The notes below the pieces were generated by a model. That model did not search any database. It saw only the letters and a list, made by a program, of their open reading frames with translations, and was not told the origin of the DNA. 56,125 nt of DNA from Omnitrophica bacterium RIFCSPHIGHO2_02_FULL_51_18 (GTDB lineage Bacteria > Omnitrophota > Gorgyraeia > 2-02-FULL-51-18). The stretch's first letter is position 1. Each line of letters opens with the position of its first letter. Below are positions 8,844-53,262 of the stretch, in pieces. A program made the position numbers and the translations under genes. The stretch spans positions 1-56,125 of the forward strand of contig MHFI01000004.1 of assembly GCA_001804125.1 (NCBI GenBank), in the 5' to 3' direction.

Positions 8844-8860
8844 GATTTAGCGCTTGATTT

Positions 8861-8914
8861 CACTGACCAACGTATGAGTAATAGGAATTCCTATTACTCA
8901 TACGTTGGTCAGTG
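8861..8914. repeat. perfect 54-bp palindrome centred on GAATTC
   Basis: CACTGACCAACGTATGAGTAATAGGAA / TTCCTATTACTCATACGTTGGTCAGTG, with 27-nt arms, no mismatch and no spacer. Confidence 0.95.
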
Positions 8915-8915
8915 T

Positions 8916-11410: not shown

Positions 11411-11439
11411 TGAGATTTCTCGCTTCGCTCGAAATGACA
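11354..11439. repeat. palindromic element, sub-family A (inverted orientation)
   Basis: CGTCATCTCGAG-CCCGACAtatttcTGTCGGG-CGAGAGATCTCAT...ATGAGATTTCTCG-cttcg-CTCGAAATGACA. Confidence 0.9.
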
Positions 11440-11450
11440 AGAAAGTCACG

Positions 11451-12482: not shown

Positions 12483-12489
12483 TCGAATT

Positions 12490-35380: not shown

Positions 35381-36880
35381 GTGAAAACGACCCTGACAAA
35401 TGACAAAGAGATCTTCGATTTTTTTAAGTCACATGAGAGTCTGAGGAAACTCCGCGTTTCTTACGATTTCCTGCTGGGTCATCCGATTTGGTGGGTGTCT
35501 TTTAAATTAAACGGCCAACCGAAGCTTTTCGAGAAATCTTTGGAGGGCTCCTATGAAATTTGGCATGATCCTCGGGTTCGGAGACTGCGTACCACCCAGG
35601 CGATAGCCGACGTTTTGAAACGACGGTCGAAGGAAAAAAGTCCTTATTTATTTACGATCGAAAAGAAGCTCTTGAATTTTTGCGTGCCGCTTGTGATGGA
35701 CGACCGTCTGATCGGTTATTTCGGGCTGATCGGCTTGAAGAACGGGATCTCGCAGGAAACGCTGGATATGTTTTCCGAACACCTCCATTTGATTCTCGAT
35801 AATTGCGCAAAAAAAGAAGAAATCAGCCGGCTTTCAGCGACGATACGTCCGCGGGCCATCGCACTTTCCACGGTGCATACGGTTCACCGCATCATTAATT
35901 CTACCTTAAATCTGGACGAACTCATTTCGCGGCTTGCGCACTTAACGGCGCAAGTATTGCGATCCAACCGCTGTTCTATTTATCTTTTTGAGAAGCCAAA
36001 GAAACACCTGGTGTGCAAGGCGCTCGTCGGCTATCCAAAAACGAAAGCGAAACACGCCAAAATCCTTGTGAGTTCATCCGGTTCCGAGGGCCGTGTGGCC
36101 AAAACGGCAAAATCGGTTTTAAGAAAATCAACAATCTGCATCCCGCTGATCGACGAGGACGTGATCGGGGTGCTGACGGTGACGGATAAAAAGGACAAAA
36201 AGGGATTCTCTTATTTTGATCTTGAGATCCTGACGACGCTCGCCGAAGAAGCGGTGATTGCGATTAAAAACGCCCAACTTTATGAGGAGCAAAGAAAAGT
36301 GACGCTCGGGACCATCCAATCGCTGGCGGTGATCCTGGGCACGCGCATCCCAAACATGGCTTCGCCCGAGGCTTTCTTAAGGATCGCGCTCCGCATGGCG
36401 GAGGAACTGCATCTAAGCGAAGAAGACACACAGGCGCTTCATTATGCGACGCTTTTGAAAGATACGGCCAAGATCGGGATTCCTGAAGAGATCTTAAAAA
36501 AGCCGACAAAGCTCACCGGAGAAGAATACCAATTGATCCGTGAGCACCCGATCAAGGGCGCTAAGATCGTGCAGTCGTTTGAAAGCCTTAAAACGGTGGT
36601 TCCGATTATTCTTTATTCGCGCGAGAAGTTTGACGGCACCGGTTACCCCGAAGGCCTGAAGGGGGACAAGATCCCCATAGGCGCCAGGGCTCTCTCCGTG
36701 ATCAACGCGTTTGAAGCGATTATTACGGGCCGGCCGTACCGGAATCGTGTGACCTTGAAAGAGGCGCTGGATGAGATCACCCGGAACAGCGGCACGCAGT
36801 TTGATCCAAAAATTGTGGAGGTGTTTATCCACATCGTGCAAAAAGAGGGATATTACAAATACATTCAACATGCCCATTAA
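35381..36880 (+). CDS. GAF domain protein with degenerate HD-GYP domain
   Basis: The central GAF-like region includes SNRCSIYLFE...VIGVLTVTDKK. The C-terminal HD-GYP fold keeps FDGTGYPEGLKGDKIP, but HD reads KD (LLKDTAKIG) and HHE reads SRE. Confidence 0.8.
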   Translation: MKTTLTNDKEIFDFFKSHESLRKLRVSYDFLLGHPIWWVSFKLNGQPKLFEKSLEGSYEIWHDPRVRRLRTTQAIADVLKRRSKEKSPYLFTIEKKLLNFCVPLVMDDRLIGYFGLIGLKNGISQETLDMFSEHLHLILDNCAKKEEISRLSATIRPRAIALSTVHTVHRIINSTLNLDELISRLAHLTAQVLRSNRCSIYLFEKPKKHLVCKALVGYPKTKAKHAKILVSSSGSEGRVAKTAKSVLRKSTICIPLIDEDVIGVLTVTDKKDKKGFSYFDLEILTTLAEEAVIAIKNAQLYEEQRKVTLGTIQSLAVILGTRIPNMASPEAFLRIALRMAEELHLSEEDTQALHYATLLKDTAKIGIPEEILKKPTKLTGEEYQLIREHPIKGAKIVQSFESLKTVVPIILYSREKFDGTGYPEGLKGDKIPIGARALSVINAFEAIITGRPYRNRVTLKEALDEITRNSGTQFDPKIVEVFIHIVQKEGYYKYIQHAH

Positions 36881-39892: not shown

Positions 39893-40417
39893 TTACTCGG
39901 GAACCGACAGCGTAATCTCTTCGCCCTGGTAGAGCAGTTTGACTTCGCCTGGGCTTACCTTCGTAAGTTTTGCACCGCCGCTCTCTTCACCCGTTCTCAT
40001 CACCTTATCGTTGAGAATGCAGTAAGAACCTTCCTGAGAAAATACAATGCCGGTCAGGTTTAGTTTGGGCGGGACGGCCAGAGGAATCTCTTCAAGACCG
40101 AACTGGGTTTTTCTGTTTTGAAGCGAAGTGCTTGCAGGGACGCTTGCGGCTTCTATCGGTACCTCGTAAGACGCCTTGGAAGGCGCCGAAGACCCAAAAA
40201 AAACCGGCCGTTTGAAGGAGGTGGAGAAAACCGGGGCAATCAGCGGGCCCGTGATCAAAAAAAGCACCATCAGCACAAAAATGGGGCCCCAGTTAATCTG
40301 CCTCTGTTTTTTTTGGACTTCAAATCCAATATTTTGCCGTAATTCACCCTGACCGTGCAACGGCTCAAGATCTTTCAAGTTCCCGGCCTTTTTTAAGGCG
40401 TCATTGATGATGCTCAT
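39893..40417 (-). CDS. GspB/ExeB-like protein (partner of ExeA-like ATPase)
   Basis: N-terminus MSIINDALKKA, a single TM helix (WGPIFVLMVLFLITGPLIAPVF), and an ATGA-type overlap with the upstream ExeA-like gene. Confidence 0.55.
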   Translation of the reverse strand: MSIINDALKKAGNLKDLEPLHGQGELRQNIGFEVQKKQRQINWGPIFVLMVLFLITGPLIAPVFSTSFKRPVFFGSSAPSKASYEVPIEAASVPASTSLQNRKTQFGLEEIPLAVPPKLNLTGIVFSQEGSYCILNDKVMRTGEESGGAKLTKVSPGEVKLLYQGEEITLSVPE

Positions 40418-41232
40418 GAATCGCTTCCTCCCTCAATTTCTTGAATGCATTGCCTGATGATGGACGGCTCAATCACTCTTTTTTCCAGCACAAAACCGGT
40501 CAGAAGTGCTTTGTCGCACACGATATTGATAAGCCTTGGGATGCCGCCGGAGTAATTGTAGATTTCCCCGATCGCTTTTTCTTCGAACACCGGCGCGGCC
40601 CCGTTGGCGCCCGCCAGTTTTAACCGGTGCTCAATGTAGCGCGGAACCTCCTCCTTGTCCAACGCCTTCATATGATAGCGCACCGAAATTCTTTGGCGGA
40701 GTTGGCGCAGTTTGGGGGAGTTCAATTTTTCTCTGAGCTCGGGCTGTCCCACGAGCACAATTTGAAGCAACTTTTCGTTTTCAGCCTCGAGATTGGACAA
40801 CATGCGGATCTGTTCCAAGAGCCGCAGACTCAAGTTTTGCGCCTCGTCGATAATCACCACCACATTGTTATTGAGCGCGAGTTGTTCAATCAAAAAGCGG
40901 TTGAGATCCGAAAAAAGCCCGCCCCGTGTTTTCTTGTCCGTTTTGATCCCCAGGTCCTCGATGATCGTTTGCAGAAGCTGGAGTTCGCTCAAACTCGAAT
41001 TGAAAATAAACGCTGTTTTTGTTTTTTCATCCAGCTGATTCAGGAGCGCGCGGCAGATCGTGGTTTTTCCGGTCCCAACTTCACCGGTAATTTCAATAAA
41101 ACCCACGCGTTCTTTGATTCCGTAAGTGAGGTACGACAGAGCCTCTTTATGCCTCTGGCTTAAATACAAAAAAAAAGGATTGCTTGTGATTGCGAAAGGC
41201 TTCCGCTTGAGGGAGTAGAAGGACTCATACAT
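40414..41232 (-). CDS. ExeA/GspA-like AAA ATPase
   Basis: PFFLYLSQRHKEAL, Walker A GEVGTGKTT, and Walker B VVIIDEAQNL. No peptidoglycan-binding tail. Confidence 0.85.
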   Translation of the reverse strand: MYESFYSLKRKPFAITSNPFFLYLSQRHKEALSYLTYGIKERVGFIEITGEVGTGKTTICRALLNQLDEKTKTAFIFNSSLSELQLLQTIIEDLGIKTDKKTRGGLFSDLNRFLIEQLALNNNVVVIIDEAQNLSLRLLEQIRMLSNLEAENEKLLQIVLVGQPELREKLNSPKLRQLRQRISVRYHMKALDKEEVPRYIEHRLKLAGANGAAPVFEEKAIGEIYNYSGGIPRLINIVCDKALLTGFVLEKRVIEPSIIRQCIQEIEGGSDS

Positions 41233-41290
41233 GCTCTGAACCCATGGATGTCATTCTAACTCGATCCCACGAAATTGTAAAGCTCCAGAA

Positions 41291-41345
41291 TGTGGAAAAT
41301 GTGGAAAATAAGAGTTGACAACGGTGCCATTTTTGCTAAGATAAT
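41291..41345 (+). promoter_or_regulatory. candidate promoter with tandem 9-mers upstream
   Basis: TGTGGAAAA twice in tandem (41291-41308). TTGACA (41315-41320), a 16 nt spacer, then TAAGAT (41337-41342). It lies upstream of the gene at 41415. Confidence 0.45.
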
Positions 41346-41414
41346 TCCAGTAAAAAGAGCATAATGTTTTATTAAATTCTTAGCATTTTTAGAGCTCGGG
41401 AAGCGGGGGAATTG

Positions 41415-41741
41415 ATGAAAAGGATCGCGATGAGGAGGCTCGTTCCGGGCGTGATTTGTGTCCTGGTGCTTTCGGCCGCAACCGTTTGTTTCGCGAATGA
41501 TGCATTCACTAAACTTGGCCGCGGCGTCGCAAATGCGTTGACGGGTTGGGTGGAGCTTCCGAAGAACATTTACAACGTCAGCGTCGAGGAAAATGCGCTT
41601 GCGGGAGTGACACTGGGACTGGCGAAAGGCGCCGGAATGACGATTGTTCGTACCGGTGCGGGTATTTATGAAATCGCCACTTTCCCGTTCCCATTGCCAC
41701 AGGATTACAAGCCTATTCTTGAACCCGAGTACGTTTTTTAA
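41415..41741 (+). CDS. exosortase-system-associated TIGR04073-like secreted protein
   Basis: Signal peptide, then FTKLGRGVANALTGWVELPKNIY and GAGIYEIATFPFP motifs. Confidence 0.6.
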   Translation: MKRIAMRRLVPGVICVLVLSAATVCFANDAFTKLGRGVANALTGWVELPKNIYNVSVEENALAGVTLGLAKGAGMTIVRTGAGIYEIATFPFPLPQDYKPILEPEYVF

Positions 41742-41770
41742 TTAAGCGCGCCCCGTCGCTTTTGGATTTA

Positions 41771-41806
41771 AAAATCCCCTTGTGAAAAACAAGGGGATTT
41801 TTGTTT
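41771..41806 (+). terminator. Rho-independent terminator
   Basis: AAATCCCCTTG-tgaaaaa-CAAGGGGATTT followed by TTTTGTTT. Confidence 0.85.
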
Positions 41807-41812
41807 CCTAAC

Positions 41813-41899
41813 CGTCATTCTGAGGTCGCCGTGGCGGCCGAAGAATCTCAAAAACGAGATCCTTCGCCCGCCACGAATCATGGCGGGCTCAGGATGACG
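41813..41899. repeat. palindromic element, sub-family D
   Basis: CGTCATTCTGAG...CGAAGAATCTCAAAAACGAGATCCTTCG-CCCGCCacgaatcatGGCGGG-CTCAGGATGACG. Confidence 0.9.
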
Positions 41900-41989
41900 T
41901 GGGTCAACTGGTGCGCTTTTCGGATAAGTGTATATTTTTATATAATCCTAGTAACTTTTAAGACAGCAATTAACTCGTTTCGTATTTGC

Positions 41990-42018
41990 TTGACAAAAAT
42001 CAACCATTTTGTTTAAAT
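41990..42018 (+). promoter_or_regulatory. candidate promoter of the HTH-PilZ-patatin operon
   Basis: TTGACA (41990-41995), a 17 nt spacer, then TTAAAT (42013-42018). SD GGAGGA at 42046-42051. Confidence 0.45.
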
Positions 42019-42059
42019 GAAATTCCCTTCGGTTCTCATTTTGATGGAGGAAACGCCTA

Positions 42060-42254
42060 GTGAACAGAAAACTGATAGAGAACGAGACAGACGAAGATAA
42101 GGCGCTTACGACAGAAAATGCTTGCCAGTTTTTGAGCATCAGCCGTCAGACGCTTTACAAGCTCGTAAAATCCAAAAAAATCCCCGGCCGCAAAGTGGGG
42201 GACAACTACCGTTTCCTAAGAAGCGACCTGATTCGCTATTTTAAGAACGACTGA
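42060..42254 (+). CDS. excisionase-family (HTH_17/MerR-like) DNA-binding protein
   Basis: 64 aa with a GTG start. LTTENACQFLSISRQTLYKLVKSKKIPGRKVGDNYRF. Confidence 0.7.
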   Translation: MNRKLIENETDEDKALTTENACQFLSISRQTLYKLVKSKKIPGRKVGDNYRFLRSDLIRYFKND

Positions 42255-42259
42255 GCTCA

Positions 42260-42640
42260 TTGACTCATTCCGTGAAGCAAAAAACAACTGAACGCCGCAA
42301 ATACATGCGTTTCAACACTCCGATGGACGTGGAGTATAAAACGTTGACTCTCAACCCCATTTTTGGGAAGGCGTTGGCCAAGGATTTAAGCCGCGAGGGA
42401 TTGTGCGTCGAAACAAAGCATAAGCTGCCGATCGGCACGACGCTTGAGCTTTCATTGAACGTGCCGGGTGATAATCTTCCGGTATTCGCCACCGGCAAAG
42501 TGGCCTGGGCGGACGGCATAGAGGCCGGACTTAAGCTCACGAAAATCAGCCAGAAGGACCGGGTGAGAGTTTTGGAGCATGTTTACAAAGAATGGTTGAG
42601 GAATAACACCCGTAGATCATTTGGGGAACATTCTCCTTAA
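42260..42640 (+). CDS. PilZ domain protein 1
   Basis: RRKYMR (RxxxR) and DLSREG (DxSxxG). Non-ATG start (TTG 42260 or GTG 42272). Confidence 0.8.
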   Translation: MTHSVKQKTTERRKYMRFNTPMDVEYKTLTLNPIFGKALAKDLSREGLCVETKHKLPIGTTLELSLNVPGDNLPVFATGKVAWADGIEAGLKLTKISQKDRVRVLEHVYKEWLRNNTRRSFGEHSP

Positions 42641-42657
42641 GAATCTCAGGTCCCGCT

Positions 42658-43008
42658 ATGGTCGAAAAACGCAAGTACATTCGTCTGAAAGCCCCCATCG
42701 GCGTCACTTATCACCTGGTGAAAAAACACAAGCGCCCCAGGATTCATAAGAGCCTTGTCCGGAATATAGGCGGGGGAGGAATGAGCCTGCTCGTGAATGA
42801 TGATTTACGTGCGGGGGATTTACTTCAGTTGGAAATACAGATTCCGCATTTGGAGGACCCCGTGGTTGCAGTAGGCGAAGTGGTTTGGTTTGTGCGTTGC
42901 CAAGGCGCGATCCCTGCGGCGCGGGAAGCAGGCCTCAAGTTCAGGGACATAAGGCCCGGGGAGCTCCATCATATTTTAGAATATGTGCACGCCGTCGGGA
43001 TCGGTTAG
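42658..43008 (+). CDS. PilZ domain protein 2
   Basis: KRKYIR (RxxxR) and NIGGGG, a variant of NxSxxG with Ser replaced by Gly. Confidence 0.8.
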   Translation: MVEKRKYIRLKAPIGVTYHLVKKHKRPRIHKSLVRNIGGGGMSLLVNDDLRAGDLLQLEIQIPHLEDPVVAVGEVVWFVRCQGAIPAAREAGLKFRDIRPGELHHILEYVHAVGIG

Positions 43009-43011
43009 ACC

Positions 43012-43437
43012 ATGCACGCGCTGAATGATTTCTTTGCCCGGCTTTCGCGGCTTCTGAAAAAGGACGGAAGGTACAAGGAAGAGGCTTATTTATTTGTGAT
43101 GAATGCGCTGAATCACGCCGTGGAGCGTCTCGGTAAACCCGGGCACGTGACGGGTCAGGAGCTTTTGAGGGCCATTCAGGAAGAGGCCCAGACGCAGTTT
43201 GGTCCGATGTCCGCCACGGTTTTTCAGCATTGGGGCATTAAAAATAGTCTTGATTTTGGACTCCTAGTGTTTAAGATGGTCGAGGAAGGCATTCTTTCAA
43301 AAACAGAAACGGACCGTTTGGAAGATTTTAGGAACGAGTCGTTTTTCGATAGTCTTTTTAACGGGGAGTCCCATTACCGATTATTGGATGAGGAGTGGAA
43401 GGAAACGGAGAAACTGAAATGGCAGAGCAAGCAGTAA
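43012..43437 (+). CDS. Minf_1886-like (TIGR04138-like) protein
   Basis: KDGRYKEEAYLFVMNALNHAVERLGKPGHVTGQELL...FGPMSATVFQHWGIKNSLDFGLLVFKMVEEGIL resembles that PVC-group family from memory. Confidence 0.5.
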   Translation: MHALNDFFARLSRLLKKDGRYKEEAYLFVMNALNHAVERLGKPGHVTGQELLRAIQEEAQTQFGPMSATVFQHWGIKNSLDFGLLVFKMVEEGILSKTETDRLEDFRNESFFDSLFNGESHYRLLDEEWKETEKLKWQSKQ

Positions 43438-43706
43438 AACAAGAGGTTAAACAACCGGCCGCCGGCACCGGGGAACAGGCGCCGCAAAAGGTCAAAAAGA
43501 AAAAACTGAGGCCCACGAATTGTGTTCAATCCAATAAGCGCATTCGCCGCAAGGACTGGTACTACCGGGACGGAAAATATTTTGCGAACAAGCAGTGCTT
43601 TAAACTTTGGATGAAGCAGGAGGCAGAGAAAGCCAAGAAGGCCGGCGAAGAGGCCGCCGCCAGTGCCGCCGCTCAAGGCCACACCGCCGAGCCAAACGCC
43701 GCGTGA
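43419..43706 (+). CDS. hypothetical Lys/Arg-rich small protein
   Basis: Internal Met of ORF 43395..43706. It has a KKKKLRPTNCVQSNKRIRRKDWYYRDGKYFANKQCF core with two Cys and an Ala-rich tail. No family recognised. Confidence 0.4.
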   Translation: MAEQAVKQEVKQPAAGTGEQAPQKVKKKKLRPTNCVQSNKRIRRKDWYYRDGKYFANKQCFKLWMKQEAEKAKKAGEEAAASAAAQGHTAEPNAA

Positions 43707-44068
43707 GGACGCCCAAGCGGATCCTCGATCGCCGGCGTTCGGTTCGTATCGAAGAAAATCTGCCCTTTCGGATAGGTCATGAAGACTATGAGACGGAAGC
43801 AAGGACTCTGAATATCTCGAGCCACGGCGCCCTGTGCGTTGTGGATCGGGATATTCCGCTGATGACACAGCTAAAGATTGGGCTTTCAATTCCTTCGGGG
43901 ACGCCGCCCCGCCAAAAAGAACACACGATCCGCTTAAAAGGGGTGGTGGTCCGCAAGGAAGAAGACGGGGTTACCGGAAAGTTTTACATCGCCGTTTATT
44001 TTTCCAATATCAGTCCGAAAGATCTGAAGACATTGCAGGATTACGTCGAGCATCGCCCCCAACCATAA
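43703..44068 (+). CDS. PilZ domain protein 3
   Basis: GTG 43703 (GTGA overlap with the upstream stop), in frame with ORF 43607..44068. RRRSVR (RxxxR) and NISSHG (NxSxxG). Confidence 0.72.
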   Translation: MRTPKRILDRRRSVRIEENLPFRIGHEDYETEARTLNISSHGALCVVDRDIPLMTQLKIGLSIPSGTPPRQKEHTIRLKGVVVRKEEDGVTGKFYIAVYFSNISPKDLKTLQDYVEHRPQP

Positions 44069-44073
44069 AGTTG

Positions 44074-46167
44074 ATGGATCCCCCCCTCGGTTCCGCCGCC
44101 AATCCCCGTTATCAAAAACTGGATAAGCCCGCGCTATTGTCGCTTTGCCCGTTGTTTTCGGGTTTGAGCCCCTGGGAGCTTAAATCGATCAGCCAGCTGA
44201 TGCGCTTGGTGGAGTACCGGAAGGACGAGGTCATTTACAAGGAAGGCGGAGAGGCGGACCGTTTCCATGTGGTGGTCTCGGGGCGCTTTGAGGCCTCGAC
44301 AGCGTCGCAGGGAAAGAAAAAAGTGCTCGCGTATTTGCGCCGCGGGGACTATTTCGGCGAGATGTCGCTTTTGACCAGCGAGCCGCATTCGGCGACCTTG
44401 CGCGCGCTTTCTGATTCGCTGGTGTTGGAACTTAAAAAGGAGGATTTTAAAAAGACCATCGAGCACAACGCCACCGTGGCGCTTGAAATCAGCCGGCGTC
44501 TAAGCACAAGACTCCGGGGCACGGACGACCGCTCGCGCTCGCTTTTAAAAAGCGACGTGATTTCCATTTTCAGCAATCAGCACCGCATCGGCCGCACCGA
44601 ATTTTCGATCAATCTGGCCGCAAGCCTTTTCCGGGAAACTCACCAGAAAATCATTCTTCTGGATATGAGCCCCTCCGGCACCGAAATTTCCGCGCGCCTT
44701 CATATGGCCGAGAAAGTCCCGATCACGCGGTTTCATAACATAGAAAACGAGCCGGCCGGTGTTTTAAGCACTCTGGTGTTGAAGCACCCGGCGGGTTTTG
44801 ACGTGCTGAATGTAGCGCACGGCGAAAAAGGCTCGCGCGGCGAGAGTATCCTCAGCCCGCTTCTGAACCATCTGGCGATTGAATACCGGTTTATTTTGAT
44901 CGACCTTCCTTCGGAGATGGACGAGATGGTCCAGAAGGCCTTAAGCCAGTCAGACTCAATTTATTTTGTGACCGACAGCAACATCAACAATGTCACGGAA
45001 ATAAAAGAGGTGGCCCAGGAGATTGAAAAGGAGCTGTCGTTCCCGGAGGACAAGATCTGTGTCGTGATCAACGAGGTTTTCTTGGGCATTCGCACGACCC
45101 AATCCACGCGGCGTGAGCTTTTCGGGAAGAAGATGAGTTTTTCGCTGCCGGCAACACCGGGGATTAAAGAGCACGAGGAGCTGCATGCGACGCCGTTTGT
45201 CGTGGACGAACCCGAGGCGGAGTATTCCCGCGTAGTTCGTCATATCGCGCGGCGCATCAGCAATAACCTCGTGGGCATTGCGCTCGGAAGCGGCGCCGCG
45301 CTGGGGTTGGCGCAGATCGGAGTTTTGAAAGTGCTGGAGCGCGAGAAGATCCCGGTGGACATTATCGCCGGCTCCAGCATCGGCGCGCTCATCGGCTCGC
45401 TTTATTCGGTCGGAAAAACGGCCGCCGAAGTCGAGCAGATTGCGCTTGAGATCAACTCCAAATTTCGCGTGTCGCGGCTTCTCGATTTTAACCTTTTCCC
45501 GGTGCGCGGGCTGCTTCACGGGAATCTTGTTATCAAGCACTTCGGCGTGCATCTGGGCAATAAAACGTTTGAAGACAGTAAAATCCTGTTGAAAATCACT
45601 GGCGCCAATCTTTCGACGCGCCAAGTTCATATTTACGAATCCGGCTACATCAGTGACGCCGTGCGCGCGTCGATTGCGATCCCGGCCATCTTTAAACCGG
45701 TGATGTTGAACGGCGAGATGATAGTGGACGGGGGGATCTTAAGCCCGTTGCCGATCAAAGCGCTGCAACAGGCCGGCGCCAATAAGATTATCGCGGTCAA
45801 CGTGTTTCCGTCTTCGAGGGATATTTTGGAACGGCGCATCCTAAAAGGGGAGGCTGATGAAAAAGAGTCCCATTTTATAAAACAAAAAAACGTTTTGTCG
45901 CGCCTGTTTTATCGTCTGAAGAAATCGTGCGTGAAGGCATTTTATCCCAACGTGTTCGACATTCTGATGAACACGATCCAGTCGATGGAAGCCGAGATTT
46001 CGGAGATCGAGGCGGAGGGCGCGGACGTCGTGATCCGTCCTGTCGTCTCGAATGCGAGCTGGGTCGAGCTTTTTAGGCCGCAGCCATTCATTAAGAGAGG
46101 CGAGGAAGAGGCCATTAAAATGCTCCCGAGGATCAAAGAGCTTGTCTCCCAGCAAGACAGCGCATGA
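44074..46167 (+). CDS. cyclic-nucleotide-binding domain / degenerate ParA-MinD-like domain / patatin-like phospholipase fusion protein
   Basis: ATG 44074 lies 5 nt after the upstream stop; ORF track start 43834 overlaps PilZ 3. CAP-type domain FGEMSLLTSEPHSATLRA. MinD/CpaE-like block ISIFSNQHRIGRTEFSINLA...ILLDMS...FILIDLPS. Patatin motifs GSGAALG, GSSIG and VDGG. Confidence 0.85.
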   Translation: MDPPLGSAANPRYQKLDKPALLSLCPLFSGLSPWELKSISQLMRLVEYRKDEVIYKEGGEADRFHVVVSGRFEASTASQGKKKVLAYLRRGDYFGEMSLLTSEPHSATLRALSDSLVLELKKEDFKKTIEHNATVALEISRRLSTRLRGTDDRSRSLLKSDVISIFSNQHRIGRTEFSINLAASLFRETHQKIILLDMSPSGTEISARLHMAEKVPITRFHNIENEPAGVLSTLVLKHPAGFDVLNVAHGEKGSRGESILSPLLNHLAIEYRFILIDLPSEMDEMVQKALSQSDSIYFVTDSNINNVTEIKEVAQEIEKELSFPEDKICVVINEVFLGIRTTQSTRRELFGKKMSFSLPATPGIKEHEELHATPFVVDEPEAEYSRVVRHIARRISNNLVGIALGSGAALGLAQIGVLKVLEREKIPVDIIAGSSIGALIGSLYSVGKTAAEVEQIALEINSKFRVSRLLDFNLFPVRGLLHGNLVIKHFGVHLGNKTFEDSKILLKITGANLSTRQVHIYESGYISDAVRASIAIPAIFKPVMLNGEMIVDGGILSPLPIKALQQAGANKIIAVNVFPSSRDILERRILKGEADEKESHFIKQKNVLSRLFYRLKKSCVKAFYPNVFDILMNTIQSMEAEISEIEAEGADVVIRPVVSNASWVELFRPQPFIKRGEEEAIKMLPRIKELVSQQDSA

Positions 46168-46216
46168 ACCCAGCCCTTCCAAGACGTGACATAGGCAGTG
46201 TTCGGAAGGGCTGGGT
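46168..46216 (+). terminator. 13-bp stem hairpin after the patatin gene (possible terminator or processing site)
   Basis: ACCCAGCCCTTCC (46168-46180) pairs with GGAAGGGCTGGGT (46204-46216). 23-nt loop and no U-tract. Confidence 0.35.
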
Positions 46217-46282
46217 GAACTCCGTGCTTTGTAAGAAAAAAATTCAGATTTAGGAAAGGACGGGGTAGAATAGGGAGCGGTT

Positions 46283-47482
46283 ATGGATGAGCATGAGATT
46301 GTGATAGTGGATGGCTTACGCACGCCTCAAGGACTCTTGGGCGGAGCGTTCCGTGATTTAACGGCGCAGAAACTGGGCGAGAGGGTTGTTCGCGCGCTTC
46401 TTGAGAAAACAAAGCTCGATCCTTCAGGCATCGATGAGCTGATTTTCGGATGCGTGGGGCAAGCCAGCGATGCGCCGAACGTCGCCAGGGTCATTTCTCT
46501 CTTGGCGGGTATTCCGAAGACGGTGCCCGGCTGCACGGTGGCGAGAAATTGCGCTTCGGGCATCCAGGCAATCGTGAACGGCTGCCAGAATATTCTATCC
46601 GGTGACGCGAATGTGCAAATTGTCGGCGGCGCCGAATCCATGTCCAGCCAACCCTATGTGAACCGGGATCTCCGCTTCGGCAAACGTCTTAAGAATTCTG
46701 AAATGATTGATTCGTTATGGGAAGGGCTCACGGATCCGGTTTGCGGTCAGCTGATGGGGCGGACGGCCGAGAACCTGGCACTGGAGTTTAAAATAAGCCG
46801 CGCCGAGCAGGACCAATACGCGGTCCTAAGCCATCAACGCGCGTTTCGCGCCACGCGTGAAGGTAAATTTAAAGACGAAGTCACGCCGGTGACCGTGCAA
46901 AAGAGAGCGGCTGGCCGCGCGATGCCTCCTGAGATTGTTTCACAGGACGAAGGCCCCAATCCCGCCTTAAATGAGCAGACGCTTTCGCTCTATCCGGCTG
47001 CTTTCATGGAAAACGGGACAGTGACGGCAGGCAACGCCTGCACGATTTCCGACGGAGCCGCTGCGCTTCTGGTCATGACGCGTAAAAAAGCATCGACGCT
47101 GGGTTTTAAAGAAGTGTTAGGCGTTATCAAAGCCTATGCGTTCGGGGGCGTCGAACCGGAGCGTATGGGCATCGGTCCTACGGTTGCGATTCCTTTGGCG
47201 CTCAAGAAGGCGGGGTTGGCTTTGAAGGATATACAGCTTATGGAGCTTAATGAGGCGTTTGCGGCCCAGGTGATCGCCTGTGAAAAGGTCTTAGGCCTTG
47301 ACCGAAATATCATGAATGTGAACGGCGGCGCGATCGCCATCGGCCATCCGGTCGGCATGACCGGCACCCGGATTGTGCTGACGCTTTTAAATGAGATGAA
47401 AAGAAGAAAGCTGCGCTACGGTCTTGCCTCGCTTTGCGTGGGCGGGGGCCAGGGAGCCGCCGTGGTATTGGAGAGAAATTAG
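46283..47482 (+). CDS. acetyl-CoA C-acyltransferase (thiolase)
   Basis: ARNCASGIQA (active Cys), NEAFAAQ, GHPVGMTG and CVGGGQGAAVVLE. Confidence 0.93.
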   Translation: MDEHEIVIVDGLRTPQGLLGGAFRDLTAQKLGERVVRALLEKTKLDPSGIDELIFGCVGQASDAPNVARVISLLAGIPKTVPGCTVARNCASGIQAIVNGCQNILSGDANVQIVGGAESMSSQPYVNRDLRFGKRLKNSEMIDSLWEGLTDPVCGQLMGRTAENLALEFKISRAEQDQYAVLSHQRAFRATREGKFKDEVTPVTVQKRAAGRAMPPEIVSQDEGPNPALNEQTLSLYPAAFMENGTVTAGNACTISDGAAALLVMTRKKASTLGFKEVLGVIKAYAFGGVEPERMGIGPTVAIPLALKKAGLALKDIQLMELNEAFAAQVIACEKVLGLDRNIMNVNGGAIAIGHPVGMTGTRIVLTLLNEMKRRKLRYGLASLCVGGGQGAAVVLERN

Positions 47483-47485
47483 CGG

Positions 47486-48712
47486 ATGTTTATTTATAAG
47501 GCGGCCGTCGTGGGCGGCGGTGCGATGGGGTCGGGTATCGCGCAGGTGATCAGCTATTCGGGACTTCCGGTCGTTTTAAAAGAAATCAACGAGGATCTGG
47601 CGCAAAAAGCGCTTTCGAATATTCGCAAGATTTATCAGGGCCGCGTCGATAAGGGCAAAATGACGCCGCCGGAGATGGAGTCGAAACTGTCTCTTGTAAG
47701 CGTCACTACGAAGTTTGAAGATCTGAAAGACGTTGACATCGTGATTGAGGCCGTGCCCGAAAAAATAGAGCTAAAGAAGAAGGTGTTTCAGGAGCTTGAC
47801 GCCGTTTTACCCGGGCAGGCGATCATCGCGACGAACACGTCGGCGCTCTCGGTCAGCGCGCTTGGCGCGGCCACAAAGCGCCCCGATAAGGTGATCGGCA
47901 TTCATTTCTTTTTCCCCGCGCACGTGATGAAACTGATTGAAGTGATCCCGGGACTGGCGACCTCAGAGGAGACCGTGCAGGATGCGGTTTCGTTTTCCGA
48001 GGGTTTAAGGAAAATTCCCGTCCGCGTTAATGAGTGCGCGGGCTTTCTGGTAAACCGGCTTCTGATGCCGTATCTCAACGAGGCGGCGTTCTGTGCCGAA
48101 GAGGGCGGCGCTGACCCCAAGGAGATCGACCAGGCGATGGTGGATTTCGGTTTTCCGATGGGGCCTTTTACGCTCGTAGATACGATAGGCCTGGACATTT
48201 GCCATGAGGTGGTCGGGGTGCTTTTGAATGAATACGGCCCCCGCATGAAACCCGCGCTTGTGTGGGACGAGATTTATAAAAGAAACCGGTACGGTGTTAA
48301 AAACGGGGCCGGGTTTTACAATTATAGCGCCTCGGCGCCGGCGGGCGATCACGCTGTCGAGGACATCCTGGCGACGCTTAGAAAATCATACGCTTCTTCG
48401 AAGAAGCTCCCGTTTTCACCGGAGAGGCTGATGCTTTCAATGATCAATGAGGCGGCATTTTGCATCCAGGAGCGGATTTCATCGCCGGGAGATATTGATG
48501 TTGCGGTGCTGGCGGGCATCGGTTTTCCCCAGAACAAAGGCGGCCTTCTGCAGTACGCCGATTCGTTGGGGGTGGATTGGGTGTTGGGGGAGCTTAACAA
48601 GCTGACCGCGGCCTATGGGGAGAGATTTTTCCCCGCGCCTTTAATCAAAAGAATGGCAGGCGCTGGATTTTTTGGAAAAAAAACAAACCGTGGATTTTTG
48701 GAATACGCATAA
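47486..48712 (+). CDS. 3-hydroxyacyl-CoA dehydrogenase
   Basis: Rossmann VVGGGAMGSGIAQV, and NTSALS, plus duplicated C-terminal domains. Confidence 0.9.
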   Translation: MFIYKAAVVGGGAMGSGIAQVISYSGLPVVLKEINEDLAQKALSNIRKIYQGRVDKGKMTPPEMESKLSLVSVTTKFEDLKDVDIVIEAVPEKIELKKKVFQELDAVLPGQAIIATNTSALSVSALGAATKRPDKVIGIHFFFPAHVMKLIEVIPGLATSEETVQDAVSFSEGLRKIPVRVNECAGFLVNRLLMPYLNEAAFCAEEGGADPKEIDQAMVDFGFPMGPFTLVDTIGLDICHEVVGVLLNEYGPRMKPALVWDEIYKRNRYGVKNGAGFYNYSASAPAGDHAVEDILATLRKSYASSKKLPFSPERLMLSMINEAAFCIQERISSPGDIDVAVLAGIGFPQNKGGLLQYADSLGVDWVLGELNKLTAAYGERFFPAPLIKRMAGAGFFGKKTNRGFLEYA

Positions 48713-48720: not shown

Positions 48721-49506
48721 ATGGCTGAGTTTCAATGTCTTCAAGTGGTGGTCGAGGAAGGCACGGCACTTTTAAAGATTAACCGGCCGCCGGTCAATGC
48801 GCTGGGACGCCAGCTTTTGGATGAATTGGGAAATGCGATGGATCAATTCCAACAGGATCCCAAAGTGAAGGTGGTCATTATCGCCAGCGCCATCCAGAAC
48901 GTATTCGTGGCCGGCGTGGACTTGAAGGAAATGGCCCAGCTCCAGACCCCGGAGGAGATGATCCAGGTGATCCGGCGCGGACAGGCCGTCTTCAACAAAA
49001 TCGAACGCTCTGAAAAACCCGTCATCGCCGCGATTCAAGGTGCCTGTGTGGGCGGCGGCCAGGAATTGGTGATGGCCTGCCATATCCGGATCGCTTCCGA
49101 CAGAACCCGTTTTGCCCAGCCGGAAATCACACTGGGCATTATTCCGGGCTTTGGCGGTTCGCAGCGCCTTCCGAGGATCGTGGGCCCGAGCCGCGCGGCT
49201 GAGCTTATCCTGACGGGCGATTTAATCACGCCCCAGGAAGCGTTTCGAATCGGGCTCGTCAATCATGTCGTTTCCGACGGTGCGCTGATAAAAACCGCAA
49301 AAGAGATCGCCAAAAAGATAACGCGCCACAGCCTGCCGGCCATCAGGGCTTCCCTACGGGCGATTACGAAGGGGCTGGATGTTTCCTTGGAGGAGGGCCT
49401 GAAAATCGAAGAAAATGAATTCATGTCCATCGCTGCGACGAATGATATGAAGGAAGGAATTCGCGCGTTCCTCGAGAAGCGTCAGCCCAGGTTTAGTGAC
49501 AGCTAA
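48721..49506 (+). CDS. enoyl-CoA hydratase (crotonase family)
   Basis: INRPPVNAL, AAIQGACVGGGQELVMACH and PEITLGIIPGFGGSQRL. Confidence 0.9.
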   Translation: MAEFQCLQVVVEEGTALLKINRPPVNALGRQLLDELGNAMDQFQQDPKVKVVIIASAIQNVFVAGVDLKEMAQLQTPEEMIQVIRRGQAVFNKIERSEKPVIAAIQGACVGGGQELVMACHIRIASDRTRFAQPEITLGIIPGFGGSQRLPRIVGPSRAAELILTGDLITPQEAFRIGLVNHVVSDGALIKTAKEIAKKITRHSLPAIRASLRAITKGLDVSLEEGLKIEENEFMSIAATNDMKEGIRAFLEKRQPRFSDS

Positions 49507-51309
49507 ATGGTCCCTCAGAATCTTGCGTTTCTTTTTAAAGAAACCGTCCGTCGTTTTCCCGATAAAAAAGCGCTGGCGTTCAGACAAAACGGCCGTTATT
49601 TTTCGCTGACCTGGTCCGAGGTCGCCCAAAAAGTAGACTCGCTTGCCTCTGCGTTTGTTGAAAAAGGGTTGAAGGCGGGTGACCGGATAGCGATCCTTTC
49701 GGAAAACAGGCCCGAATGGGCGTGGGTGGACCTGGCGGCCCAGCGCATCGGGCTTATTTCAGTGCCGATTTACGCCTCGCTGACATCCCGTGAGATTCAA
49801 TATATCCTTACGGATTGCGGTGCTTCGGTGGCCGCTGTTTCCAATAAAGCGCTGTTTGAAAAATTGGCGCCCATTCAGCGCTCGGTGCCGACGCTTCGCT
49901 GGGTGGCCGGTTTTGACGCCTCTTTGTCGTTGTCAAAAACCGAGCTTAGCGTTCCGTTTTTTTTGATCAAGGAACTTGAAAATACAAAGAGCAATCTCGC
50001 GGACCTGGAGTCCCGCTCAAGCTCTATCCCGCCGGATGCTGTCGCCAGTTTAATTTACACGTCCGGCACGACCGGTTTCCCGAAGGGAGTGATGCTGAGC
50101 CACTCCAATTTCATTCACAACGTGTTTTATTGCCAAAAAGCGTTTGGGATGGATGAGACGGACGCGCATATTTCGTTCCTGCCTCTTTCGCACGTGTTTG
50201 AGCGCCTGGCCGGTTATTATCTCATGATCTTCATCGGCGCCGCGATTTCCTATGCGGAGAACATGGACACCGTGGCTCGCGACCTTTTAGAAGTCAAACC
50301 CACTTTCATTCTCGGCGTGCCGCGCTTTTACGAGAAGATTAAGGATCATGTGCTGGAAACGCTTGAAAAATCGGGAACGCTCAAGCGTACGCTTTTTTTC
50401 TGGGCCAAGGATCTGGGAGCACGGCGCCGGCGGATGTTATCGCAAGGCAAAAGACCGGGATTGTTTTTTAACGGCAGTTATCAGCTGGCAAACTTGATTG
50501 TTTATCGTAAATTCAATCGACGTTTAGGCGGGCGAATCCGGTTTTGCGTTTCGGGGGGCGCAGCGCTTCCGAAAGAGATCGCCGAATTTTTTTCGGATTT
50601 GGGAATTTTGATCCTGGAGGGCTATGGTCTGAGCGAAACCTCGCCCGTGATCAGCGCCAACCGCCAAAAAAACTACAAATTCGGGAGCGTGGGCATTCCG
50701 CTCGAGGGGATCCAAGTGCGCATTACGGAAGAAGGGGAGATCGCAACCAAAAGCGCGTGCCTGATGCGGGGTTATTGGAATAAGCCCGAGGAGACGCAGG
50801 CCGTTTTAAAAGAAGGATGGTTTTACACAGGCGACCTCGGACAGATGGACAGGGAGGGTTATCTTTCCATCACCGGCCGCAAAAAAGAGCTGATTGTGAC
50901 TTCCGGCGGGAAAAAAGTGGCCCCGCGGGCCATTGAGGAGATACTGGAAAAGGACCCGTCCATTTTGCGGTGCGTGTTGTTCGGCGAAGGGGAAAAATTT
51001 ATCTCCGCTTTGATCGTGCCCCGGAAGGAAAAAATTCTGGAGTACGTACATGGGCAGAAAATCGCGTACTGCCAGTATTCGGAACTCTTAAGTAATCCAA
51101 AAATTTATGAATGGATGGACCGGCGAGTCCAGGCGCTTTGCCAAGATTTGGCGGGCTACGAGAAAATCAAATATTTTGCCCTGCTTGAGCATGACTTTAG
51201 CCAGTCCTCGGGAGAGCTTACGCCCACCTTAAAAGTAAAGCGTGACGTGGTGCTTTCCCGTTACAAGGAGAAGCTGCTTCCTTATTACCAGAAAGGCGGA
51301 CTCTCTTAA
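49507..51309 (+). CDS. long-chain fatty acid-CoA ligase
   Basis: AMP-binding motif IYTSGTTGFPKGVMLSH, GYGLSETS and TGDLG...GRKKELI. Confidence 0.9.
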   Translation: MVPQNLAFLFKETVRRFPDKKALAFRQNGRYFSLTWSEVAQKVDSLASAFVEKGLKAGDRIAILSENRPEWAWVDLAAQRIGLISVPIYASLTSREIQYILTDCGASVAAVSNKALFEKLAPIQRSVPTLRWVAGFDASLSLSKTELSVPFFLIKELENTKSNLADLESRSSSIPPDAVASLIYTSGTTGFPKGVMLSHSNFIHNVFYCQKAFGMDETDAHISFLPLSHVFERLAGYYLMIFIGAAISYAENMDTVARDLLEVKPTFILGVPRFYEKIKDHVLETLEKSGTLKRTLFFWAKDLGARRRRMLSQGKRPGLFFNGSYQLANLIVYRKFNRRLGGRIRFCVSGGAALPKEIAEFFSDLGILILEGYGLSETSPVISANRQKNYKFGSVGIPLEGIQVRITEEGEIATKSACLMRGYWNKPEETQAVLKEGWFYTGDLGQMDREGYLSITGRKKELIVTSGGKKVAPRAIEEILEKDPSILRCVLFGEGEKFISALIVPRKEKILEYVHGQKIAYCQYSELLSNPKIYEWMDRRVQALCQDLAGYEKIKYFALLEHDFSQSSGELTPTLKVKRDVVLSRYKEKLLPYYQKGGLS

Positions 51310-51321: not shown

Positions 51322-52164
51322 ATGTGGGTTGAACACCGTTTCCTGTCCTTTGACGCGACCCCCATTTTTTATCGCCGGTTAAAGCCCGCCTTAAGGGCCA
51401 AAGCAACGGTGCTTATTGTTCATGGCATGGGGGAGCATGGCGGACGCTACCGCGCCGCGGCCGAGTGTCTGGGCGGCATGGGCTATCAAGTATTTATTCC
51501 GGATCTGCGGGGTTTCGGAAAAAGCGGAGGCAAACGGGCGTGCCTGCGGGCATTTTCCGATTACCATAAGGATCTGGGGGCGTTGCATCGCTTCGCCGCG
51601 TCCGAAGAAAAAGAGACACCCGTATTCCTATTGGGACACAGCTTGGGCGGGCTCGTCGCCGCTTCTTACGCCGCTCTGACCCAGCACCCCGTGCTTGCGG
51701 GACTCGTCCTAAGTTCTCCCTGTTTTGGCATTGCGCTTCCGGTGCCTGTTTGGAGGCATGTCCTGAGCATCGCCGCGTCTTACGTGCTTCCCAACTTTAC
51801 GCAACCCACCGGATTAAACCCTGATTATTTGACTCATGATAGGGAGATCGTGGAGCGATATAAACAGGACCGGCTTGTTTTCAGGGGCGTGAGCGCCCGG
51901 CTCTATCATGAAATGACCCGGACCATGGCCTTTAGGGAACAAATTGCCGGTCAAATTTATTGCCCCACGCTTATGCTTCAATCAGGCGAGGATTTCATCG
52001 TTTCTAAAAATGACTCGGTTGCCTTTTATGAGAGCCTTCGATGCCCATCCAAAGCAATCGAGATATACAGCGGTTTTTACCATGAACTCTTGAATGAAAC
52101 AAACCGTTCGGCTGTTCTGACCCGGATCGGTTCATGGATCCAGGAGAATCTAATTCTTAAGTAG
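51322..52164 (+). CDS. alpha/beta hydrolase (lysophospholipase / monoacylglycerol lipase-like)
   Basis: HGMGEHGGRY, nucleophile elbow GHSLGG, and C-terminal FYHELLNE. Confidence 0.85.
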   Translation: MWVEHRFLSFDATPIFYRRLKPALRAKATVLIVHGMGEHGGRYRAAAECLGGMGYQVFIPDLRGFGKSGGKRACLRAFSDYHKDLGALHRFAASEEKETPVFLLGHSLGGLVAASYAALTQHPVLAGLVLSSPCFGIALPVPVWRHVLSIAASYVLPNFTQPTGLNPDYLTHDREIVERYKQDRLVFRGVSARLYHEMTRTMAFREQIAGQIYCPTLMLQSGEDFIVSKNDSVAFYESLRCPSKAIEIYSGFYHELLNETNRSAVLTRIGSWIQENLILK

Positions 52165-52707: not shown

Positions 52708-53262
52708 TTGGTGAAACCTTCCTGGACTGTCGTGATCGGCGCCGCTTCGCTCGGCGCCGTCTGCCTGGCTGCTTTTCCTTTGGCCACGAATTACTACCGG
52801 ACTTATTATGGAACGCGCGAGCCTTTTTACGGCTCCCCGGTGCCGGCATTCTCAAGTTGGGTTCAGATTCGAAATGACCCCTACGGAAAAGGCGCTTTCG
52901 GAGCTTCCAGGAACGGGGGCCGGGTTCATCAAGGCTTAGATCTCGTTACCCGAGCCGGGTACCCGGTTTTTGCGGCTAAGAGCGGGCGTGTCGCCTTTTC
53001 GGGCGATGCAAAGGGTTATGGCCTCAGTACGGATATTCTTCATCCGGACGGTTTGCGCAGCCGCTATGCGCATCTTTCGGCGTTGGACGTTCAGGCCGGG
53101 GATTGGGTGGTTAAGGAGCAGATCATCGGAAAAAGCGGAAAGACCGGCAATGCCCAGAACCCTCACATCACTCCGCATCTTCACTTTGAAATAAGAAACC
53201 GGGAAACTGCCTTAAATCCCACGGCGAATTTGCTGGATCCGTCAATCGTCATCAGTTATTGA
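52708..53262 (+). CDS. M23 family metallopeptidase (LytM-like)
   Basis: HQGLDL, YAHLS and PHLHFEI. N-terminal hydrophobic anchor. Non-ATG start (TTG 52708 or GTG 52711). Confidence 0.85.
   Translation: MVKPSWTVVIGAASLGAVCLAAFPLATNYYRTYYGTREPFYGSPVPAFSSWVQIRNDPYGKGAFGASRNGGRVHQGLDLVTRAGYPVFAAKSGRVAFSGDAKGYGLSTDILHPDGLRSRYAHLSALDVQAGDWVVKEQIIGKSGKTGNAQNPHITPHLHFEIRNRETALNPTANLLDPSIVISY

Follow-up and report, generated by a model that had tools for sequence, protein, structure and literature searches.

Gene content and layout of the locus

The stretch analysed here, called the window throughout, comprises 56,125 nucleotides (nt) of contig MHFI01000004.1 from Omnitrophica bacterium RIFCSPHIGHO2_02_FULL_51_18. 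Our subject is a run of seven genes within it, g1 to g7, together with the fatty-acid genes that follow. The last gene of the run, g7, encodes a protein in which a cyclic-nucleotide-type (cNMP) domain, a ParA/MinD-like domain and a patatin lipase domain are joined, and three of the genes before it encode stand-alone PilZ proteins (Table 1). A preliminary description, made from the DNA letters, had presented the run as an operon. The listing of open reading frames (ORFs) bore out its seven plus-strand genes, with gaps of 5, 17, 3 and 5 nt, and its two overlaps, of 19 nt between g4 and g5 and of 4 nt (GTGA) between g5 and g6, and family searches returned the domain content claimed for all seven products. 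The start codons of g5 (ATG at 43419), g6 (GTG at 43703) and g7 (ATG at 44074) match the N-termini of their orthologues. The terminator, repeat element and TTGACA-N17-TTAAAT promoter that had been reported upstream were all present as well. The hairpin reported downstream of g7 proved to be stable, but it is not a canonical terminator, since no U tract follows it.

Table 1. Positions of genes and signals at the g1–g7 locus and in the adjoining lipid genes
Feature	Position	Strand	Description
Intrinsic terminator	41769-41809	+	closes upstream TIGR04073 gene
Palindromic repeat element	41812-41900	none	~90 nt, between terminator and promoter
Operator-like site	41960-41974	+	AAGAC-N5-TTAAC, 15 bp upstream of -35 element
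Sigma-70-type promoter	41990-42018	+	TTGACA-N17-TTAAAT, TG at extended -10 position
g1	42060-42254	+	HTH_17/excisionase-type DNA-binding protein, 64 aa
g2	42260-42640	+	stand-alone PilZ
g3	42658-43008	+	stand-alone PilZ, variably present
g4	43012-43437	+	Minf_1886/TIGR04138 protein, variably present
g5	43419-43706	+	small basic protein, no family match
g6	43703-44068	+	stand-alone PilZ, directly before lipid genes
g7	44074-46167	+	697-aa cNMP/pseudo-ParA/patatin protein
Stem-loop	46168-46216	+	13-bp stem, z = -4.5, only one of its kind in window
Thiolase	46283-47482	+	Pfam Thiolase_N/C
3-Hydroxyacyl-CoA dehydrogenase	47486-48712	+	Pfam 3HCDH_N/3HCDH
Enoyl-CoA hydratase	48721-49506	+	Pfam ECH_1
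Long-chain fatty-acid--CoA ligase (FadD-type)	49507-51309	+	NCBIfam FadD11 3e-100, long-chain-fatty-acid--CoA ligase 7e-83
Hydrolase_4 alpha/beta hydrolase	51322-52164	+	lysophospholipase/monoacylglycerol-lipase like; Hydrolase_4 2.5e-66, lysophospholipase L2 2e-20

Lipid genes are the most persistent neighbours of g7

For the comparison of gene neighbourhoods, we used the best 80 of 584 confirmed stretches from a scan with g7 (one genome per GTDB species), and all ORFs of these loci were searched by tblastn with the window proteins and by iterated hidden Markov model searches. The 80 loci, in which g7 identity ranges from 32 to 85%, come from Omnitrophota metagenome-assembled genomes, some of them labelled 'uncultured Planctomycetia', Planctomycetales or Eisenbacteria. 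Relatives of g7 number in the hundreds, are full length (~690-700 aa) and 40-85% identical, and belong to Candidatus Omnitrophota wherever the source is named; their JGI label is 'NTE family protein'.

The most persistent neighbours of g7 are lipid genes. In 56 loci among the best 80 of 584, g7 is directly followed by a gene for thiolase, 3-hydroxyacyl-CoA dehydrogenase or FadD. Of the 46 loci with enough sequence on the 3' side, 37 have a beta-oxidation or FadD gene no further than 6 kb downstream of g7, and FadD itself is found downstream in most loci. The spacer at the 3' end of g7 is estimated, for most relatives, at about -13 to +70 nt. Since a fatty-acid gene thus follows at roughly 0-70 nt, g7 is no natural end of an operon. 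The 'seven-gene operon' of the preliminary description holds as a tight unit of seven, but in relatives this unit runs on into the beta-oxidation genes.

Other lineages add further lipid genes beside g7. Directly upstream there may be a Hydrolase_4 esterase with a glycerophosphodiester phosphodiesterase (GDPD), a glycerol kinase (GlpK), or a fusion of enoyl-CoA hydratase and 3-hydroxyacyl-CoA dehydrogenase (ECH-HADH) together with an acyl-CoA dehydrogenase; an FAD-dependent oxidoreductase is found on the downstream side. A Hydrolase_4 paralogue stands between PilZ and g7 in distant lineages. Taken together, the esterase, GDPD, glycerol kinase, dehydrogenases, FadD and beta-oxidation set outline a route from glycerolipid to acetyl-CoA.

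g7 encodes a probable acyl hydrolase with a degenerate ParA/MinD-fold domain

The g7 protein consists of a cNMP domain (~aa 20-150), a degenerate ParA/MinD-fold domain (~aa 155-398) and a patatin domain (~aa 399-697), which scored 4.6e-25 against cNMP_binding, 7.6e-7 against AAA_31 and 8.2e-33 against Patatin, respectively. Its AlphaFold2 model has a mean predicted local distance difference test score (pLDDT) of 86 and a predicted template modelling score (pTM) of 0.85. The protein is predicted to be cytoplasmic, since neither its sequence nor this model points to a signal peptide or membrane segment.

In the patatin domain, the catalytic motifs G-S-S435-I-G and D552-G-G do not vary among 63 sequences, and the 78 orthologues retain both. 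By profile, g7 matches PlpD at 1.6e-51, and by Foldseek its patatin domain aligns with PlpD at a template modelling (TM) score of 0.83, with weaker matches to CapV and CapE (0.5-0.64). RssA (NF007623) is the best named NCBIfam family (1.9e-38), yet at 132.4 bits against a cut-off of 272 g7 is no equivalog of it. Phospholipid-acting patatins normally carry Arg or Lys in the oxyanion box. The box of g7 reads GSGAALG, and at its key position all 78 orthologues have L, F, Y, M, S or W, never R or K. From its catalytic residues, its fold and its neighbours, it is well supported that g7 is probably an active acyl hydrolase, heading a glycerolipid/fatty-acid catabolic block.

The cNMP domain scored 87.8 bits against PF00027, for which the cut-off is 27.5, and Foldseek matched it to the cNMP domains of CRP and PKA. 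Its cassette reads FGEMSLLTSEPHSAT, and in the alignment EPHSAT of g7 stands against KPRAAT and EPRSAT of PKA and PKG, so that His105 falls on the phosphate-contacting Arg of these kinases. This histidine is invariant in 63 family members. Since the Arg that would bind the phosphate is thus exchanged for His, the ligand of this fold is uncertain. In three loci of one lineage (L074-76), g7 has a one-residue insertion; two of these proteins read HRTAT and one RRTAT, which restores the Arg missing in other orthologues. L074, L075 and L076 belong to the lineage with the order PilZ-PilZ-GlpK-g7 described below.

By Foldseek, the central domain matches ParA (3ea0) at a TM score of 0.77-0.80, MinD (1hyq) at 0.79 and FlhG at 0.68-0.75, and by sequence it matches Soj at 1.2e-5. 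Its P-loop, NQHRIGRTE, is one residue shorter than that of Soj, and the (K)GGxGK[ST] pattern occurs in none of the 78 orthologues. Judging by this loop, the ParA-like domain has no usable P-loop and cannot bind ATP in the normal way. We also looked for a correlation between Walker A state and PilZ adjacency in the 78 orthologues and found no signal, since the P-loop is degenerate throughout. In an exhaustive search, the central domain retrieved first the ~690-aa proteins of the same architecture and then ~400-aa proteins with a receiver domain followed by ParA/MinD, of the TadZ/CpaE type. The sensor-then-ParA order thus has a counterpart in these relatives, but we know of none for its fusion to a lipase or for the lost P-loop.

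PilZ genes at the 5' edge of the lipid block

All three PilZ proteins exceed the PF07238 cut-off of 22.5 bits, with 46.3 bits for g2 (E = 5.6e-12), 43.6 for g3 (3.9e-11) and 53.2 for g6 (4e-14). The RxxxR motif is present in each of them (RRKYMR in g2, KRKYIR in g3 and RRRSVR in g6) and is kept in orthologues. The second motif, [D/N]xSxxG, had also been ascribed to all three. It is found in g2 (DLSREG) and g6 (NISSHG), but in g3 the Ser is replaced by Gly (NIGGGG); the orthologues of g3 mostly read N/D-I-S-G-G-G and thus keep the Ser. Both g2 motifs are kept down to 43% g7 identity and both g6 motifs down to 35%. This retention over the whole range argues for g2 and g6 being real receptors of cyclic di-GMP (c-di-GMP).

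A same-strand PilZ gene was found within 5 kb upstream of g7 in 30 of the 49 loci that have at least 5 kb of upstream sequence, compared with a background of 6 PilZ ORFs in 682 kb. At 57-80% g7 identity, all relatives show the order g1-g2-(g3)-(g4)-g5-g6-g7, and at ~43% the order is g1-g2-g5-g6-g7. The neighbourhood is therefore conserved, in full at 57-80% and in its core at 43%, but not in every member, and chance adjacency, which the preliminary description had named as grounds for giving up its operon, is in part countered. Among the 19 close-clade loci that reach back to g1, g3 is missing in 7 and g4 in 10; these two genes are dispensable members. g1 and g2, the helix-turn-helix and PilZ genes, are adjacent in every case, g5 and g6 form the most widely retained small-gene pair, and g6 lies next to g7 in every close-clade locus whose sequence extends that far, among them all 13 that have 5 kb or more upstream.

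At 35-40% g7 identity, one set of loci has the order PilZ ... g5-PilZ-Hydrolase_4-(SAM_HAT)-GDPD-g7, where the counterpart of g6 adjoins the Hydrolase_4 gene, and at 34-36% another set has PilZ-PilZ-GlpK-g7. In most loci of these distant sets, 2-16 nt separate PilZ from the next gene; the other loci have gaps of ~40-90 nt. PilZ therefore meets the lipid genes at three types of junction, PilZ-g7, PilZ-Hydrolase_4 and PilZ-GlpK.

Three further genes near the PilZ module recur in relatives or bear on c-di-GMP. The XrtA/PEP-CTERM system-associated ATPase gene (40414-41232, minus strand), which has a small unannotated partner ORF at 39893-40417, is divergent from the exosortase-associated TIGR04073 gene (41412-41741, plus strand) directly upstream of the operon, and the synteny of this divergent pair (39893-41741) with the PilZ module extends over large distances. 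A plus-strand gene (35381-36880) for a GAF and HD-GYP-type (HD_5) protein lies about 8 kb upstream of g7 and keeps this place in relatives down to 43% identity. Its GYP motif is kept (DGTGYPEG), and its HD and HHE metal-ligand motifs are gone (LKDTAK and SRE instead). This protein could be a phosphodiesterase that has lost its activity, or else a receptor of c-di-GMP.

The other small proteins

The product of g1 matched Pfam HTH_17 (3.6e-15) and TIGR01764 (1.5e-12), and its core is ~90-100% identical across relatives whose g7 is 57-80% identical. It is a candidate regulator of the operon.

The g4 product belongs to TIGR04138 (8.3e-35, 119.5 bits against a cut-off of 60), and its AlphaFold2 model is all-helical with a pLDDT of 85. 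Foldseek gave no match to this model in the Protein Data Bank (PDB) better than E ~1, a PDB sequence search gave no significant match, and the gene context of a distant g4 homologue, which offered an M16 peptidase, was uninformative. g4 often adjoins a PilZ gene, and a pair of the g3-g4 type (PilZ-Minf_1886) recurs at L038 and L050, once on the opposite strand.

The g5 protein is basic, with an Ala/Lys/Glu-rich tail, and its gene is always just upstream of g6. Distant orthologues carry CxxC...FCxxxC, of which the lineage of the window keeps two of the four Cys. Pfam searched at E up to 10 gave LIM, zf-FLZ and zf-FCS, all below cut-off, and the core would fit a degenerate FCS/TRASH/LIM-like zinc finger. 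All 359 homologues of g5 are unannotated, and the source names, where shown, are Omnitrophota.

Promoter region

The terminator that closes the upstream gene has a 15-bp stem (-22.3 kcal/mol, z = -6.0) followed by the U run UUUUUGUUU, and relatives have an equivalent hairpin and T run in the same place. The repeat element at 41812-41900 folds at -57.1 kcal/mol with z = -8.1 (GTCATTCTGAG ... CTCAGGATGAC). It has a second copy at 10476-10554 and is missing from the aligned upstream regions of relatives, and the copy before the operon is an insertion in this genome.

When the sequences preceding g1 in 22 loci were aligned, the columns of TTGACA and TTGnTnnAAT proved to be conserved in 20 species. 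The operator-like site at 41960-41974 is the remnant of a conserved direct repeat, TTAAC-N5-TTAAC, whose first half-site has decayed to AAGAC in the window. The exact repeat sits ~100 nt upstream of g1 orthologues (L001-L031 and L045). In 17 close-clade relatives it occurs once per locus, solely beside the -35 element, against ~1.5 occurrences expected by chance in 1.24 Mb. Further copies, sought near g5, g7 and the thiolase gene as a search for a regulon, were not found. This arrangement of promoter and repeat would fit autoregulation by g1. An Rfam scan of 41200-46400 returned no riboswitch, those of the c-di-GMP type included, and two chance matches to eukaryotic RNA families.

A proposed glycerolipid-catabolism block under second-messenger gating

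We read the locus as a vertically inherited chromosomal glycerolipid-catabolism block of Omnitrophota under second-messenger gating, and give this reading a probability of about 0.5. From the enzyme families identified, we infer the following activities and substrates. The cytoplasmic patatin-type acyl hydrolase g7 would be the entry enzyme, and the Hydrolase_4 esterase would take off the remaining acyl chain. FadD would activate the fatty acids set free, which thiolase, 3-hydroxyacyl-CoA dehydrogenase and enoyl-CoA hydratase would then oxidise. In some lineages, GDPD, glycerol kinase, acyl-CoA dehydrogenase or the FAD-dependent oxidoreductase would extend the pathway.

Gating could take place at two levels, for which we infer the coupling of PilZ to the lipase, the ligands and all protein-protein and protein-DNA contacts. 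At the level of transcription, g1 with its PilZ partner g2 would act at the TTAAC-N5-TTAAC site and make the block respond to c-di-GMP. At the level of the protein, the cNMP-fold domain of g7 would be a built-in sensor, whose ligand may not be cAMP or cGMP, and the pseudo-ParA domain would most likely be a scaffold for dimerisation or docking, possibly for g6 and g5. The most specific version of this mechanism, in which g6 and g5 dock on the pseudo-ParA domain and switch the lipase on or off by c-di-GMP while the His-type cNMP domain reads a second, non-canonical ligand, is a tentative proposal that we consider fairly unlikely to hold as a whole.

A number of observations count against the gated block. 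No PilZ gene lies within 5 kb of g7 in 19 of the 49 loci, and the PilZ-free loci inspected have housekeeping genes upstream of g7. Not only do g3 and g4 come and go among loci, but genes for SAM_HAT (SAM hydroxide adenosyltransferase), an M48 peptidase, an HhH-GPD glycosylase-like protein and an MGMT-like protein are interleaved with the PilZ/g5 and lipid genes in distant lineages; such interleaving, without obvious functional link, is seen upstream of g7 at L026, L038, L046, L047, L058, L061, L078 and L080. The PilZ module is syntenic with the XrtA-associated ATPase gene, so that its linkage to g7 may in part be general small-genome synteny, and small pilZ genes accompany other Omnitrophota loci, for example giant genes (10.1101/2023.11.21.568195). 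In the window, though only there, the spacer between g7 and the thiolase gene is 115 nt long and contains the hairpin and a promoter-like site. As to g7 itself, a cNMP pocket without Arg and an oxyanion box without a basic residue make both its ligand and its substrate uncertain. Finally, the loci are related by phylogeny, and our counts therefore exceed the true number of independent events.

Alternative explanations

Of the rivals, plain synteny carries most weight, given that nearby PilZ genes are missing from a third or more of lineages and that small pilZ genes are found at other loci too. According to this explanation, g1-g6 would be an independent c-di-GMP cassette, serving the envelope, exopolysaccharide or a PEP-CTERM/exosortase system, that abuts an unrelated lipid operon headed by g7, with read-through as in compact genomes. 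The PilZ-free loci with g7 and lipid genes, the dispensability of g3 and g4, the interleaved housekeeping genes and the small pilZ genes elsewhere would all be expected, and so would the synteny of the XrtA/PEP-CTERM ATPase and TIGR04073 genes with the PilZ module, which extends to ~37% g7 identity. However, PilZ stays at the 5' edge of the lipid block in loci without the XrtA-associated ATPase gene (L063, L071, L074-76), and it does so through three different junctions whose gaps are mostly as short as 2-16 nt. At the g6-g7 junction of the window, moreover, the gap is 5 nt and there is no terminator, and g6 directly precedes g7 in every close relative. We consider an independent cassette possible but somewhat unlikely. 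A role in membrane-lipid homeostasis is itself a variant of the catabolic block: g7 would deacylate the cell's own phospholipids under second-messenger control, as NTE/PNPLA6 or RssA do, and its neighbours would recycle the products. The cNMP-then-patatin order, the RssA-type patatin, the 'NTE family protein' label on relatives, the prediction of a protein free of signal peptide and membrane segments, and the adjacency, in some lineages, of GDPD, which acts on the glycerophosphodiester product, are all consistent with it. A full set of FadD and beta-oxidation enzymes, joined in some lineages by acyl-CoA dehydrogenase or the FAD-dependent oxidoreductase, exceeds the needs of recycling, however, and the Arg or Lys in the oxyanion box of phospholipid-acting patatins has given way to a hydrophobic residue in the 78 orthologues. 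Membrane homeostasis as the main role is distinctly improbable.

The preliminary description had compared the lipase to nucleotide-activated patatin effectors such as CapV of the cyclic-oligonucleotide-based anti-phage signalling system (CBASS), while noting that the receptors and the architecture differ. As an anti-phage system, the locus would bring about abortive infection once a nucleotide signal had switched on a patatin that destroys membranes, as with CapV or, for cNMP-domain effectors, the pyrimidine cyclase system for anti-phage resistance (Pycsar). At the level of domains there is some likeness, since the cNMP domain of g7 resembles Pycsar effectors (PycTIR, 3.1e-14), the patatin domain weakly resembles CBASS phospholipase effectors (8.9e-8), and CapV and CapE are among its Foldseek matches. 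Against this, the CBASS lipase model for the CapV family (NF041079) gave 20.2 bits where the cut-off is 200, far less than the RssA model, and PlpD is a much better structural match than CapV. g7 is vertically inherited across the phylum, in fixed housekeeping synteny and operonic with beta-oxidation genes. When the 47 window products were scanned against protein families, no cyclase, GGDEF or cGAS/DncV-like nucleotidyltransferase (CD-NTase) was found, in agreement with the earlier statement that the operon has none, and a motif scan of the window ORFs for GG[DE]EF found nothing. In a test for Pycsar, the cNMP domain matched the PycTIR and PycC models at domain level, and the window holds no cyclase gene. 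PADLOC, run on the seven operon products, gave domain-level matches alone and no match to a CBASS cyclase. We therefore rejected the defence system, which is extremely unlikely, and the lipid explanation that the preliminary description had offered as its competitor turned out to be the better of the two.

Comparison with known systems

NTE/PNPLA6 (Swiss cheese, Nte1) and bacterial patatin proteins with a cNMP domain, such as Rv2565 of M. tuberculosis, resemble g7 in that a cNMP-type domain precedes a patatin esterase of the RssA/NTE subtype, and a lipid-deacylating role of the NTE/PNPLA6 type fits the neighbour genes of g7. Rv2565 has been listed as an esterase with a role in phosphatidylcholine metabolism (PMC10865251). 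In contrast to these proteins, g7 has a single cNMP domain and no membrane anchor, and a degenerate ParA/MinD-fold domain of ~245 residues stands between its sensor and its esterase. The Arg of the phosphate-binding cassette is replaced by His and the basic residue of the oxyanion box by a hydrophobic one, and g7 differs from NTE/RssA-type lipases in being operonic with beta-oxidation. The catalytic domain is matched best, in sequence and in structure, by RssA/YchK and PlpD, and the Ser-Asp dyad is common to all of them. RssA consists of one domain, and PlpD is secreted as the passenger of a type Vd autotransporter, whereas g7 has three domains, is predicted to be cytoplasmic and remains below the RssA equivalog cut-off (132 versus 272 bits). 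With CapV and CapE, in which a nucleotide second messenger gates activity, g7 shares the patatin fold. CapV, however, is a direct binder of cGAMP that has neither a cNMP nor a ParA domain, and its gene lies beside a CD-NTase in mobile defence islands. The locus of g7 has no cyclase and is vertically inherited with catabolic genes alongside, and the likeness of g7 to these effectors is weak (20 bits; TM 0.5-0.64).

Beyond the family of g7 itself, the central domain is closest in sequence to the TadZ/CpaE-type proteins (~400 aa), in which an N-terminal receiver sensor is followed by ParA/MinD. They keep the AAA_31, CbiA and ParA signatures far more strongly than g7, which differs from them in its shortened P-loop without the Lys pattern (78 of 78 orthologues) and in carrying an enzyme domain. 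In the cellulose secretion complex of E. coli, a PilZ domain contacts the ParA/MinD-family subunit BcsQ (PMC7840130). By analogy with this contact between BcsQ and the PilZ domain of BcsA, docking of PilZ on the ParA-like domain of g7 would be plausible. BcsQ, in contrast, binds ATP and is part of a membrane synthase complex, and the match of g7 to CBP_BcsQ is not significant (E = 0.024).

Stand-alone PilZ regulators such as MotL and FilZ have been described (PMC8203827, PMC10304486). Like them, g2, g3 and g6 consist of one PilZ domain with motifs for c-di-GMP binding, of which the second is altered in g3, and each gene has a candidate partner beside it. The targets of the known examples, in contrast, are flagella, pili or polysaccharide synthases. 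In the literature searched, from which one paper naming both Omnitrophota and patatin was left aside, we found no association of a patatin with PilZ, no link of PilZ to a lipase or to fatty-acid catabolism, and no earlier account of a patatin in Omnitrophota. Nor did we find a characterised enzyme with the arrangement of cNMP, nucleotide-blind ParA/MinD and patatin. All domains of g7 come from known families, and the closest systems are the cNMP-patatin lipases of the NTE/RssA type. From these, g7 is set apart by a ParA/MinD domain that is inserted and blind to nucleotides, by the His in its pocket, by an oxyanion box without a basic residue and by its operonic link to beta-oxidation.

Implications for Omnitrophota

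The physiology of Omnitrophota has been inferred almost wholly from genomes. The phylum is widespread, uncultured and mostly ultra-small, and host-dependent or predatory lifestyles are suspected (PMC10066038). Lipases, phospholipids and beta-oxidation are undiscussed in the Omnitrophota literature that we examined. A lipase-to-beta-oxidation block found across the phylum suggests that glycerolipid breakdown is a core trait of Omnitrophota, and the PilZ genes that recur ahead of the block predict control of lipid mobilisation by c-di-GMP, an addition to the outputs known for this messenger. If g6 and g5 do dock on the lipase, lipid mobilisation would be a new output class of c-di-GMP signalling, and a pseudo-ParA domain would have taken on a new use, as a docking site for receptors, in bacteria believed to live at the expense of host cells. 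If the link to PilZ is synteny alone, the finding would shrink to a new domain variant of NTE/RssA-type lipases.

Other genes in the window

The rest of the window is ordinary chromosome, with lipopolysaccharide and exopolysaccharide glycosyltransferases, PriA, Fmt, biotin carboxylase, PFK and AroB, in addition to the XrtA/PEP-CTERM-associated ATPase and the TIGR04073 protein. A long one-strand series of envelope polysaccharide genes occupies 724-14150 and includes GT4, GT2 and GT9 glycosyltransferases, a sugar transferase, a Wzy-type ligase, a methyltransferase and a gene resembling monogalactosyldiacylglycerol synthase. Two neighbouring, overlapping genes at 19966-22028 each match galactose-1-phosphate uridylyltransferase-like domains (DUF4931, DUF4921), and the pair looks like tandem paralogues. 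On the 3' side of the lipid block lie an M23 peptidase gene (52708-53262) and a gene for an unannotated 176-aa protein with a hydrophobic, signal-peptide-like N-terminus (53284-53814). The N-terminus of the 601-aa protein encoded at 54237-56042 is likewise hydrophobic and signal-peptide-like, and this protein has a weak match to the MXAN_6640 HExxH metalloprotease-like family.

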